A DNA stretch of 63,554 bases, taken from the sequence record PV189404.1; one strand, written 5' to 3'. Below are positions 21,001 to 30,000 of the stretch, one piece after another. Made by a program: the position numbers. Numbering within the stretch: the stretch's first letter is position 1; the number at the start of each line of letters is the position of its first letter. Source of the stretch: Escherichia phage vB_EcoP_phi346.

Positions 21001-24000
21001 AGTTGTTGAATGAACTGGACGAACAGACGAAGCGACAGGCTGTGATGAATGAGCTGAAGGCGAAGCCGCGTTCTGAACTGCTTGAGGAATACCGCAGACT
21101 CAGCCAGAAAGAGGGGCGCACCGAGACTGAAGAACAACAGTTTCAGGCAATACGAGAAGTCATTCGCCCACAACAGGAAGTGACGCCGGAAGCACAGTCA
21201 CAGCCTGAAAATGCGGAGGATGGTAACGGGAGCATTTACCCGACGGTGCGGTTCCGGGACCCGAATGAAGTCCGCATTGAAATTAACGGGAATGGTGCGT
21301 CCAGACCAGCGGAACGCATTGAGAAGGTGCGCCCGGACAACCGTTATTTCACGGATGAGAAAAGCGCCATGGGGAGTGATGTTTTCCGTAATGCCGCCGC
21401 CACCGGCCTGAAACCGTCCGTAGTGAAGAAAGGCGAGAATCAGTATGCCGTTGAAATGGATAATCCTGCGTTCTCTGAAGATGTGGCAACGGAAACCATT
21501 AACACCCTGGCTGACGGAGAGCGTATTGCTGATGCTGACCCGATGGAGCAGCCCGCGTTCATGCGTGACCCGCGATTCCGTGGTTTCACGGGGGATGATA
21601 CGGAGGTACAGGCCCGCCTTGCCCGTGGCAACGCGCCGACGGCAGAGGAGCTTGTACGTTCACAGATGGCTGAAGGTGATGCCGGTCCGACAGCACAGGA
21701 GTTAACTGAGCGTCCACGCCTGCCCGCTCCCGGCGATATTCATCCCGGACAGGGATATCCGTTACCGGGAGAAGTGGCGCGTACGCCGGATGAAAATCAG
21801 GCCGGACGTGGTGGTCGTTTTACCACAACCGGTGAGGTTAAGGGCCAGAGTTTCCAGAAAGGACAAGCTCCGGCACCGGAAAACGCCGCTGGTCGCCAGG
21901 GGGAAACACTCGAGGGTGACATGGTTCGTCGTGGTCTGCCGTCACCGGATGCGCAGAACGCGACAGCACCGGTACGTGAAGGGCTACCGGCTCCTGACAT
22001 TGCGCGTAATGTTCGTATGCCTCAGCCTGAATCACTTCCCCGCACTGTACGGGACTCACTGCCTGAGCTTGCACAGCAGGCAGAAGTACGCCGACAGGCC
22101 GGAGGAAATCGTGACATCCCGCAGCCTGAGACAATCGCACCTGAATCTGAAACAACTGTCTCTACTGACAGGGAAGCTACCGTGCGCGGAGGTGAAGTCA
22201 GGGGCAAAAAAATTGAAGACTTTGGTGAAGAAATTAAGGGCGCGGCAAAACACCGTTATGCACAGCTTGCTGAAACACTGGGTAAAACGCTGGAAGACAG
22301 GGATTATGCCACGCAGCCGCTGAGCAAACTGTTCCCGAAACCGGACTACGCAAAACTGGCGAACGAAGGTGCTGATGCTGATACCCTGGCAATGATAGCG
22401 CTGTATCGTAGCGATATTCCGGCGAAGACGAAACACAATACGGCAGGCCTGGGGAGAGCATAAAAAAAGTACGACACAGTGTATCGGAAATGCTGAACGG
22501 AACGGTCAGCGCGAAACGCCTCGCAGAATGGATGGAAGGCAGAATGCCCTCCCGTTACGCGGATACCTGGCAACTGTTACGCACTCTGCCACCCTCACAG
22601 ATGGACAGGGCTTCTGCTTATCGGGTGGTATCGGGTGTGTATCAGGCGGCAGGAGGGAAGCGTTACGATCCGCCACAGAAACTTTATTCACTGCGCAATA
22701 AGGACAATAAGGGGAGTAACCTCTTTTTCTCGGAAAGCAGGGATGAATTACTGGCAAAGGCGAAAGTCTGGTTTGCAGAGCAGGAGGAAAAATCACAGGC
22801 GAAAGGTGATGAAAAAACAGCACCGTCACCGGATGACAAAATCCGCTTTGACGTTTACCGGAATACCCGCAGTGGCGATATTTTTATCGCTTACGGTAAA
22901 AACAAAATGCGGGTGAGAGGTGGCTTTAAGTCAGCCAGTGATGCGCGTAAGTACATTGATTCACATCGTGATGAGCTTGTTCGTCATGTGAAGGAGATGC
23001 GGGAGATTTCGCGTGAGGAGCAGCGCAACGCCACCAACCGCGACCGTACCGGACCAGAACGCCGCAAGGGGAATGTTTCACCGGAGCAGTTCAGTGATGC
23101 GTTTGGTTTCCGTGGTGTGCAGTTTGGTAACTACGTGGAAGGTCCGCGTCGTCAGGCTGATTTGAACCGGGCTTATGACTCGCTGCATGACCTTGCGGAA
23201 GTACTGAATGTACCGACAAAAGCGCTTTCCCTGAACGGTCGTCTTGGCCTGGCATTTGGTGCCCGTGGTAAGGGTAAGGCGGCGGCACACTATGAGTCAG
23301 GTGAGGTGGCAATCAACCTGACAAAAGGTAACGGACCGGGTGCGCTGGCGCACGAATGGTTCCATTCTCTGGATAATTATTTTGGTCGTTATGACGTTTC
23401 CAATGACGGGAAAATTACGTCAGGTGGCGACTTTATGACGGAAGCACAGCGTGTCAGGCGCATATTTAAAGACGGCAGGTATGTTGATGCTGAATATCCG
23501 GTACGTCAGGAGGTTTACGACGCTTTTAAAGGTGTGATTCAGGCCATTAAAAACAGTGACATGCCGCGTCGTTCAGCGCTTCTCGATAAGGTGCGCTCAA
23601 AACCGTACTGGTCAACGGATGTTGAAATGGCGGCACGTGCCTTTGAGCGTTATGTTCAGGATAAGGCGCGTATGGCTGGCGTGGAGAATGATTATCTGGT
23701 CAATATCCGTAAGGCACCTGAGCACAACACAGATAACACCTACGCTTATCCGACGAATGCGGAACTGGATGGCGGTATTCGTGAGGCATTCGATCACCTG
23801 TTCCGCACCCTGAAAACCCGTGAGACGGACAAGGGCGTTGCGTTTTATTCCCGTAAGGGCGTTACCCGCACACCTGAAGGTAATCTCATTTCGGATGTTA
23901 ACCGTAGTGCGGAAGCCAAAGGCAGCCCGGTCCCGCAGGTTGAAGCGGTTGCCCGTGGCGTGATGAGCGGCATTAAGGACAGTGACCTGAAGGTCCGTGT

Positions 24001-27000: not shown

Positions 27001-30000
27001 GGCCGGAGAGTACTGGAGTATTCCTCTGCCTTACGGGTACAACGTTTTCTTCCTGCTTGGTCACACAGCCGAAGGGGTGGCAGCGGGCGACCTGACCGCT
27101 TCACGTGCTGCCGGTAATGTTGTTGGTGGTGTGCTTGGGGCATTCAGTCCTGTGGGCAGTGAAACGTCGGAAACACTGTCCGGGGCATTGCTGAAAAATG
27201 CAGCACCGACAATTCTGCGTCCGTTTGCGAATCTTGCCATGAACGAAAACTTCATGGGGGCGCAGATTTACCAGGAGAACATGCCGTTTGGTACACCAAA
27301 ACCTGACAGCCAGCTGGGAAGACGTTCAACGCCAGAAGCGTACAAGGCGTTTGCATCCTGGCTGAATGCGTTCTCTGGTGGCAGCCAGTACCGTTCCGGT
27401 GCGGTGGATGTCACGCCGGAATCACTGAAATACTGGATTGACTATATCTCCGGAGGGACAGGGCGCTTCATTTCCAAAACCACGGATGCGGCGGTGAAAT
27501 CGCTGAACGGTATTGATATACCGGAGCAGCAGGTGCCCTTCCTGGGGAAAATTTCAGGTGAGGTGATGCCGTATGCTGACCAGCAGAAGATGTACGACCG
27601 GATGACAGAGGTTGCGCAGTATCACGCAGAGCTGAAGAGTCTGACCGGTGCAGAAAGAACGGCGTTCATTGACGAGAACAACGGAAAATTGTCGATGAAC
27701 GGGCTTATGCAGGATACCCGGAAGAGACTGAAGGATTTGCGTAAACAGCGTGATGCCATTTACGCCGACAGTACTCTCAGTCTGGCGCAACAGTCGGCGA
27801 TGGTGAAATCGGTTGAGCGGGATATGAAAATTGCCGTGGATCGGTTTAACCGCGAGTACAACAAAAAAGTGGGAGTGGAGTAAAGAACATGCCCCGTACG
27901 GAAGTGCGGGGCATGCTTAACGGGGTGTGTACATAAATGGGTACTGATATGACGATTATTTCGCCACTTTCTGTATTTAAATCAATGACTTAATACTTAT
28001 ATTCATTATATCCATTTAACTAAGAGGACATTGTTGCGTATTGATTTTGGTTGTTCACCATATGACTGATAATACCGTCTTTATGGTTTTAAAATCAAGG
28101 TGTAAGTTTGTTTTTGTTCATGGTTGATTATCTTCTTTTGCGTTGAAAAGTGTTTTGTTCACTTGCTAATGCGTACATATTGAGTACAGAATACATTATA
28201 AACTTGTGTACAGGATATAAAGCATTGGCACTGAGCGACACCAAACTACGAGGCCTCTACGGAAAACCCTACTCTGGCCCTGCTGAAATCACCGATGGTG
28301 ACGGGTTAAGTGTGCGGATTACTCCAGCAGGAACTATCACGTTTCAGTACCGTTATCGCTGGAATGGTAAGCCAGTACGTCTTACTGTCGGGCGCTATCC
28401 GTCTACTTCACTGAAGGACGCGCGTGTTATCGTCGGTGAGATGCGCGCATTGTACATGAAGGGAGTTAACCCTAAAAATTATTTTGCGCCCAGTGACGGC
28501 GAACTGACATTAAAAGAATGCCTGGATCAGTGGTGGGATAAGTATGTTACTGATCTGAAACCCAATACACAGACGCTTTACAGATCCGTCGTGTACAACA
28601 CTATGTACACACAGTTTGAAGGCTCGCCAGTTGCCAGTATCCCAGTATCGGCATGGGCTCGTTTCTTTGACAAACAAGAAAGCCTCAACAAGAAAAAGGC
28701 TCGTGTTTTGTTGTTACAACTGCGTTCAGTTATTAACTGGTGTATCAGCCGCCAGTTAATCCCATCATGCGAATTACTCAAGCTTAGTGTTAAGAATATT
28801 GGGAAAAAACCAGATGTAGGGAGTCGTGTACTTACCTATACGGAACTGGCAAAAATTTGGCTGGCGCTGGAGAACTCAAAAGTAGTTACTTCCAACAAGG
28901 TGTTACATCAATTGCTATTGCTATGGGGGGCCAGACTTTCTGAGCTACGTCTCGCGACAGCCAGTGAGTTCAACATGGAAGATCTGGTCTGGACAACCCC
29001 AAAAGAGCATTCAAAAATGGGGAATATTATCCGGCGTCCGGTATTCACTCAGGTTAAACCTTATATCGAGAGATTGCTTAATGCGGGTTTTGATGTGCTA
29101 TTCCCCGGGCAGGAAATAGATAAACCTATTGATCGTTCGTCGGCTAATTTGTACATGAAAAAGTTAAGGGAGAAAATTGATATTCCTGAATGGAGAACGC
29201 ATGATTTTAGGCGTTCTCTGGTAACGAATTTATCTGGGGAAGGAATTATGCCCCACGTCACTGAAAAAATGCTGGGGCATGAACTTGGGGGAGTTATGGC
29301 CGTGTATAATAAACACGACTGGTTGTCGGAACAGAAAGATGCGTATGAGTTGTATGCTGATAAAATTTTCTGGCACGCTAAACAGCTCGGTTAATTCCTC
29401 CGGCTTTAAGCCATTGTTCAACGGCCTGACGACTATATCGCGCCGGATGAGTAAGTACTGGTTCCGGGAATCCGTGTTTTTTTCGCAAATTATACAAAGC
29501 TGTGCGCCTTTTTTGTAACAAATCAGAAACCTCTTTTTCGGTCATTAAGTTGACTTCCATAGTATGCGCTCCTTTTCTACATGTATTTCAACAGCCTGAT
29601 ATCATCCACGCCCTAAAGGACGTGGATTCCCGCTACGTTCACTCTGACAATTCGTTGATCAAGTCACGGTATTTATTCAGTTCTTGCAACGCCTTACATG
29701 CACCCTCCCATCGTTTCTGTTTCCGCCCGGCGCGGCGCGCTTCTTTCCGTGATTTACGTAGCAGGTCACCTATAATGTTGTTCTGCACTGGCTGAACTGG
29801 CTGAACTGGCTGAACTGGTTGAACTGGTTGAACTGAATCAATATCTGTTTTGCTTCCAACTCCCTCTACTGCCTGCCAGATGCCGTTTTTTACCTTTACG
29901 ATCCCCTGGTTTTTCAACTTCCACAGCGTATCAATGACGTCATTCAAATCAATATTGAGACCTTTAGAAATGCTGTCGGCTGTTGCTTTTCCTAATTTGT

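Follow-up and report, generated by a model that had tools for sequence, protein, structure and literature searches.

The stretch of DNA analysed here, hereafter the window, comprises 63,554 nucleotides of Escherichia phage vB_EcoP_phi346 (sequence record PV189404.1), and our subject is the gene that ends its late strand, represented at 22490..27883 (+) by a 5,394-bp open reading frame (ORF) of 1797 amino acids (aa) with an ATG start codon. An earlier note on this DNA had described the product as a giant virion protein of 1797 aa encoded by a single 5.4-kb ORF. The ORF is there as described, and it is the C-terminal 64% of a large polyvalent protein of ~2,793 aa (308 kDa) rather than the whole gene. 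The same note had the ORF closing the late operon, and it is indeed the last late-strand gene ahead of the integrase (28150..29394), lying after the tail-fibre genes and a cassette of virion genes and adjoining the integrase and attachment site; in prophage PA2 the stop codon of the giant gene is 123 nt from attR. The giant gene accounts for ~13% of the phage genome; a simple scan found no intrinsic terminator 3' of it, and no tandem repeats were found within it. At a nucleotide identity of at least 90%, the 1797-aa ORF is matched in 185 phage records, all of them Shiga-toxin (Stx)-converting or related short-tailed phages of E. coli and Shigella, including 933W, VT2-Sakai, PA2 and phi24B, and 427 of 5,426 complete E. 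coli genomes also contain this DNA. The nearest record, Escherichia phage vB_EcoP_phi349, is essentially identical to the window across 25 kb.

The division of the gene can be traced to a frameshift site and the stop codon that results from it (22448..22463, +), where the G-run is shorter than in relatives. Over 17,541 aligned bases, the window and phage PA2 differ at this single site, with GGCAGGCCTGGGGAGAGC at 22448-22450 in the window and GGCAGGCTGGGGGGAGAGC in PA2, leaving the window one base shorter. The shift creates a TAA stop at 22461-22463, and the next ATG of the other frame, at 22490, is an internal Met of the intact protein that lacks a good ribosome-binding site (CGGAAATG). In the RefSeq record of PA2, the otherwise identical DNA is annotated as one coding sequence (CDS) of 2,793 aa, and the two ORFs of the window fall side by side on the protein family phrog_616, the upstream 999-aa ORF (19464..22463) matching positions 1-984 and the 1797-aa ORF positions 997-2793. 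Among the best 120 protein-cluster matches, 98 fall at 2792-2794 aa, and a length of 1797 aa does not occur; one of the best clusters alone represents 4,186 sequences. A 48-mer across the window junction had no match in 50,697 phage records and 5,426 E. coli genomes, whereas the intact 49-mer matched 77 phage records and 223 E. coli genomes, mostly inside one annotated CDS among the matches listed. The gene is also intact in 22 of 26 close loci in IMG/VR.

These comparisons lead us to conclude that the split is most likely a sequencing or assembly error in a homopolymer region, or otherwise a recent lesion, the artefact being the somewhat likelier of the two because the gene is essential. Errors in G-runs are typical of long-read assemblies, and phi349 has two such changes, G5 instead of G6 at the junction and another deletion in a G-run that lies 550 bp upstream (locus 2910, 3460). 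The alternative is that the split is biologically real, the gene being either two cistrons, with reinitiation giving a 107-kDa N-terminal and a 201-kDa C-terminal product, or a pseudogene in a defective phage. The junction change is in fact not a plain difference in homopolymer length (CCTGGGG against CTGGGGGG), shortened frames occur in the other 4 of the 26 IMG/VR loci (L015, L023, L029, L060), the GenBank records of Min27 (as ORF77 and ORF78) and phi349 carry the gene in pieces, and PHROGs holds two families made solely of the N-terminal piece (phrog_26030 and phrog_20690). We nevertheless consider a real split somewhat unlikely, given that the exact variant is in no other record, that the remaining 17.5 kb are identical to PA2, that the downstream ATG is an internal Met with a poor ribosome-binding site, and that, as described below, the Sp5 orthologue is essential and a peptide spanning the junction is present in phi24B virions. 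In annotation, the two ORFs call for joining or for a frameshift flag. Programmed frameshifting or slippage was considered and rejected, because the frame of the upstream ORF holds no X XXY YYZ heptamer within the overlap (22409-22463), the G-run at the junction is just four Gs long, and the frames of relatives are simply continuous; an A AAA AAG heptamer occurs only after the TAA.

Several phages carry this same gene under other names, namely phi24B gp47 (vb_24B_48), ORF80 of Sp5/VT2-Sakai (ECs1242), 933W L0134 and PA2 gp48. It is likewise their last late gene beside the attachment site and integrase, and it encodes one chain of 2,793-2,807 aa in place of the 999-aa and 1797-aa ORFs of the window; a literature search under the name 933W L0134 gave no match. 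The phi24B orthologue, 95.9% and 97.7% identical to the two window ORFs, provides direct evidence on the claim of the earlier note that this is a virion protein, and bears it out. In purified phi24B virions, gp47 yielded 10,962 peptide-spectrum matches (PSMs), second only to the major capsid protein, with counts that are highest in the top four slices of the gel, above the 79-kDa portal, and with peptides that cover residues 92 to 2806 in a supplement that pools peptides over samples rather than giving them per gel slice. The junction-spanning peptide HNTAGWGESIK(K) accounts for 76 PSMs, and the HExxH peptide GNGPGALAHEWFHSLDNYFGR was detected as well; phi24B gp47 is therefore made as one chain, with its zincin region in the virion. 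A crude length-normalised count against the portal, which is our own estimate and not that of the authors, suggests roughly twenty copies of gp47. The phi24B preprint (2026) reports that gp47, while present in purified virions, is absent from the cryo-electron microscopy density, and proposes it as an ejection protein. Genetic evidence comes from Mondal et al. 2016, according to which deletion of Sp5 ORF80 (2,793 aa) abolishes plaques while packaging and head shape are normal; the DNA-filled heads showed no binding of a tail-fibre antibody, and for this reason ORF80 was classed with the tail-assembly genes.

Within the 1797-aa ORF, the motif HEWFH that the earlier note had seen near residue 290 is located at aa 288-292 (23351-23365) and is conserved in relatives; from the composition of the protein, an HExxH would be expected by chance ~0.03 times in this length. 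It belongs to a first zincin-like domain of the CLCA_X or phage-type metallopeptidase (MPTase) kind (aa 186-444, 23045..23821, +), which is preceded by an LPD5 domain (aa 55-204, 22652..23101, +; PF18799, E 3.8e-45) and includes Pfam LPD1 at aa 365-444. An initial homology search with the whole ORF gave near-identical E. coli proteins only, and diversity was obtained from a search of representatives with aa 190-700, which returned 5,884 representative clusters (50% identity) at E <= 1e-3; the best 150 listed are nearly all proteins of 1,200-5,700 aa. Conservation was read from these 150 of the 5,884, clustered at <=50% identity and giving 151 aligned rows, in which H288 and H292 are present in 151/151, E289 in 150/151 and D295 in 147/151. 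In a 26-sequence alignment (A1), H267, E269, E379 and E386 do not vary; together with D295 they are candidates for the third metal ligand or for further active-site residues. The LPD5 and zincin pair recurs in 113 of the 150 representatives and thus forms a second stable unit, besides the C-terminal module discussed below.

The NCBIfam model CLCA_X (NF041907) aligns 243 of its 250 positions with aa 186-441 (E 3.3e-44), at a score of 151.2 bits that is below the curated cut-off of 260; the domain is therefore a relative of the CLCA_X family and not a member by the NCBI rule. Because this match spans aa 186-441, the HExxH core and Pfam LPD1 read, at the level of sequence, as one domain of which LPD1 makes up the C-terminal helices. 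Pfam has no model for the core, so routine annotation misses the predicted peptidase. Lenart et al. 2013 (PMC3650047) introduced CLCA_X as a family of predicted zincins, long proteins of phages and plasmids in which an HExxH precedes an Asp, and the commonest phage-type MPTase has a His ending strand 2 and an Asp three residues past the HExxH (Iyer, Burroughs, Anand, de Souza and Aravind 2017, PMC5512222), a description that H267 and D295 appear to fit. An AlphaFold model of aa 190-700 (predicted local distance difference test, pLDDT, 74.7) places HEWFH on a helix after a small sheet (helix 97-112 in model numbering; loop 74-82 has pLDDT <50) and the conserved Glu on a later helix, as in the zincin fold. 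The closest solved folds include domains of anthrax lethal factor and Pro-Pro endopeptidases; with these and MtfA, all minimal gluzincins, sequence identity is just 5-14%, no PDB chain was matched at the level of sequence, and a sequence search of solved structures with both ORFs and with profiles A1 and A2 gave nothing below E 0.09. We predict zinc-dependent peptidase activity for this domain.

Zincin domain 1 is nearly confined to Stx-type phages among deposited genomes, in which a tblastn search with aa 186-444 against 50,697 phage genomes gave 192 matches, 185 of them Stx-type and 7 distant; metagenome-derived clusters number in the thousands. One of the distant examples, in Bacillus phage Dartukuta, goes under 'putative methyltransferase'.

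Further along the chain, a second zincin-like domain (~aa 480-650, 23927..24439, +) carries the motif HEIIHH at aa 555-560 (24152-24169) and a conserved E611. Conservation is 87/90 for H555, 90/90 for E556, 44/90 for H559 and 68/89 for H560, and E611 is invariant in A1; the motif would fit the HEXXXH variant of MPTases recognized by Iyer et al. The model shows strands followed by helix 357-376 with HEIIHH and helix 416-429 with E611 (model numbering), the same strand-helix-helix layout as in domain 1, and hhalign aligns the two domains in register but weakly (E 1.2e-3). A match to Peptidase_M76 reaches E 0.11 only. The next domain is MuF-C (aa 754-843, 24749..25018, +; PF18819, E 7e-18, 65 bits against a cut-off of 27.6), for which a PBECR-type ribonuclease (RNase) fold is predicted. 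H756, N816 and S820 are conserved, H756 and S820 in at least 90% of 22 aligned rows. The phi24B preprint refers to a 'MuF-C metallopeptidase', which looks like a mislabel, because both Pfam and Iyer 2017 (PMC5512222) define MuF-C as an RNase-like PBECR fold, the latter with a His in the first helix and a Ser or Thr in a late strand. The real peptidase candidates are thus the HEWFH and HEIIHH domains and not MuF-C.

The rest of the chain is a conserved, mostly helical C-terminal module of ~930 aa (~aa 890-1797, 25157..27880, +), within which Pfam recognizes LPD38 (aa 1480-1685, 26927-27544, +). With LPD5, LPD1 and MuF_C, this makes four Pfam domains and upholds the reading of the earlier note that the protein is multidomain and of the large polyvalent type. 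The module stands at the extreme C-terminus in all of ~25 diverse representatives, and its model is mostly helical (pLDDT 77, predicted template-modelling score 0.72). Its full-length fold matches (template-modelling scores 0.6-0.87) come from the C-terminal parts of numerous giant viral proteins, and in some of these lysozyme, RelA/SpoT or methylase domains take the place of the present cargo; against solved structures there were only generic helical bundles and no enzyme-like fold match. Among 42 distant viral contigs with the module, zincin 1 is present in 7 and zincin 2 in 11. We therefore suggest that the C-terminal module is probably a constant 'chassis' for virion incorporation and delivery under variable cargo. 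An AAA+ ATPase, hinted at by Mondal 2016 (COG1483), was also sought; the 2,793 aa hold no [AG]xxxxGK[ST] Walker A motif, and Pfam, NCBIfam and PADLOC gave no ATPase match beyond DruE at E 0.002. That DruE/SNF2 match was likewise all that PADLOC offered in the way of a relation to defence systems.

A further property of the intact protein is that none of its 2,793 residues is a cysteine. At the 0.78% Cys of the window's other late-region ORFs, zero would have a probability of ~3e-10. The avoidance extends to 150 distant homologues, of which 119 lack Cys altogether and which together contain 74 Cys in 434,383 aa. Cysteine avoidance is not mentioned by Iyer 2017 (PMC5512222). The absence of Cys would fit a protein that stays unfolded or refoldable through a narrow channel and the oxidising periplasm.

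Taking these observations together, we favour, as the more probable account, a virion polyprotein gene, split in this record, whose product is packed in the capsid, is delivered upon infection and is processed by its own zincins. The ~308-kDa protein would lie inside the capsid and leave via the tail at infection, unfolded, as a chain having no cysteines could; its own zincin domains would then cleave it into functional units, among them a putative RNase, and the C-terminal module would serve virion incorporation and delivery. This module may also help tail assembly, which would explain the Sp5 phenotype. Several observations weigh against this account. Proteolysis, zinc binding, RNase activity and ejection are predictions for this protein and its close relatives alike. 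The match to CLCA_X falls short of its cut-off, and the change at the junction is more than a difference in run length. That gp47 extends across several gel slices of high mass may be due to smearing or to damage in storage and not to processing. Finally, the loss of tail-fibre antibody binding in the Sp5 mutant points to a role in tail assembly that a pure ejected cargo would not need.

This last point bears most directly on the possibility that the protein is mainly a structural tail-assembly factor, such as a plug, a template or a portal-tail connector, in which the HExxH is vestigial or structural. Mutant heads that package DNA yet bind no tail-fibre antibody, and the tail-assembly class assigned in the same study, are what such a factor would predict, and the C-terminal module without an enzyme-like fold match is compatible with it. 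The HExxH, Asp and Glu residues are, however, invariant across clusters at <=50% identity, which is unexpected for a vestigial site; the protein is abundant, yet absent from the resolved tail and capsid density; and the cargo domains shuffle between relatives as they do in effector arrays. We regard a mainly structural role as very improbable.

A different fate for the zincins, in line with the earlier note's suggestion of host envelope or defence targets, is that they are delivered effectors that cut host envelope or defence proteins, or cell-wall peptides, and so aid DNA entry. Action on host proteins is among the possible MPTase roles listed by Iyer 2017 (PMC5512222), the phi24B preprint proposes peptidoglycan degradation by the metallopeptidase, and among the nearest solved folds are toxins with host proteins as their substrates, such as anthrax lethal factor and the Pro-Pro endopeptidases. 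Against this, the peptidase of the preprint was assigned to MuF-C, an RNase-like PBECR domain by Pfam and by Iyer et al., and MPTases form, in the same survey (Iyer 2017, PMC5512222), the hub of polyvalent proteins regardless of cargo, a position that fits a processing role. No lysozyme or transglycosylase domain was found here, while in some relatives such a domain is joined to this C-terminal module. The usual hydrolases of peptidoglycan cross-links, moreover, are LAS, M23 and M15 enzymes without an HExxH, and HExxH zincins are not among them. We consider the effector reading unlikely overall, and self-processing at least as likely as host-envelope or defence targets.

Returning to the self-cleaving polyprotein that we favour, we note a bolder form of it, which we offer as a speculation with the odds well against it. 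In this form, ~ten to twenty Cys-free 308-kDa chains would be held in the T=9 head and thread unfolded through the tail; the ~930-aa module would build or gate a trans-envelope path and also nucleate tail assembly; and the two zincins would free the RNase-like effector and the other pieces. Only if this form holds would the avoidance of Cys across the family be a general mark of the proteins that phages inject.

The closest known systems are the phage-type polyvalent proteins of Iyer et al., in which unrelated domains are likewise combined in a giant chain encoded beside virion genes. The protein described here combines several unrelated predicted activities in one polypeptide, is encoded among late and virion genes, and shares with that set the MPTase zincins, PBECR/MuF-C, LPD5, LPD1 and LPD38, the last of these being phage-only. 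It departs from the published description in that LPD1 is merged into the zincin and in that the ~930 C-terminal aa form one module, compared with the 189-position LPD38 model. The CLCA_X family (PMC3650047; NF041907) is alike in its ~250-aa domain with an HExxH and then an Asp, matched over the whole model; its founders are stand-alone predicted zincins of ~260 aa, in contrast to a domain in a giant chain that scores below the family cut-off. The virion RNA polymerase of N4 (gp50) and DdrB/DarB of P1 are likewise giant and virion-packed, and theirs is a delivery together with the DNA; both carry an MPTase, and DdrB is proteolytically processed (Iyer 2017, PMC5512222). Unlike them, the present protein has no RNA polymerase, ParB, helicase or methylase domain and no Walker A motif. 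As a working analogy we use the ejection proteins gp14-16 of T7 and gp7/16/20 of P22, which reside within the capsid, do not show up in symmetric reconstructions, are required for infectivity and have been proposed to build a conduit across the envelope. The analogy would be one of function, since no relation in sequence or fold was found, one 308-kDa chain stands in place of three proteins, and the deletion mutant lacks tail-fibre labelling.

This is, then, a known protein of a known kind, whose family, domains, virion location and essentiality are already published. What is new is modest and consists of the frameshift, the placement of LPD1 within the zincin, the second zincin, the RNase-like nature of MuF-C, the avoidance of Cys and how far the C-terminal chassis extends. 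Short-tailed Stx phages disseminate Shiga toxin genes among E. coli, and the near-total absence of Cys together with the shared C-terminal module offers cheap, testable clues to the delivery of large proteins by podoviruses.

The N-terminal third of the gene (19503..22460, +), which in the window is the separate 999-aa ORF 19464..22463, differs in character from the remainder. Its true start is probably Met14 at 19503 and not the first ATG at 19464, given that the ATG at 19503 has GGAG 5 nt upstream and is equivalent in position to the RefSeq start in PA2; the sole two Cys of the 999-aa ORF lie within the 13 codons ahead of 19503. The first part (19503-20813, ~440 aa) has hydrophobic stretches rich in Gly and Ala, for example IEGAAFGAAMGAPFGAVAG, with weak glycine-zipper matches in Pfam (E 0.03-0.07), and is followed by ~550 aa that are acidic, Pro-rich and of low complexity. 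The isoelectric point is 5.0 for this third and 9.5 for the remainder. In a scan for transmembrane helices, no 19-residue window exceeded a Kyte-Doolittle value of 1.4; the highest values were 1.38 for the N-terminal part and, within the 1797-aa ORF, 1.22 at aa 1453; a membrane-inserting role is therefore not supported.

Upstream of the giant gene is a cassette of small virion-protein genes (16716..19433, +) encoding 243 aa (gp51), 148 aa (gp50), 83 aa and 421 aa (gp48, Sp5 ORF79). The supplementary proteome of phi24B virions includes gp48, gp50 and gp51, and Sp5 ORF79 is essential according to Mondal 2016. In the set of 42 distant viral contigs, the giant gene is preceded by a homologue of gp51 in 15, of gp50 in 12 and of the 83-aa protein in 14, and the examples printed show the same gene order.

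The 83-aa protein (17906-18157) is named 'bacteriocin' in PA2 and was treated as a contaminant in the phi24B virion proteome. In 14 of the 42 distant contigs its homologue is flanked by those of gp50 and gp48 ahead of the giant gene, a conserved placement that makes it a possible member of the virion cassette. Moron-type genes at 14424-15866, which separate the tail-fibre genes from this cassette, encode a membrane-associated protein and Lom, an outer-membrane protein of the Ail/Lom type, and the G+C fraction there falls to 0.44.

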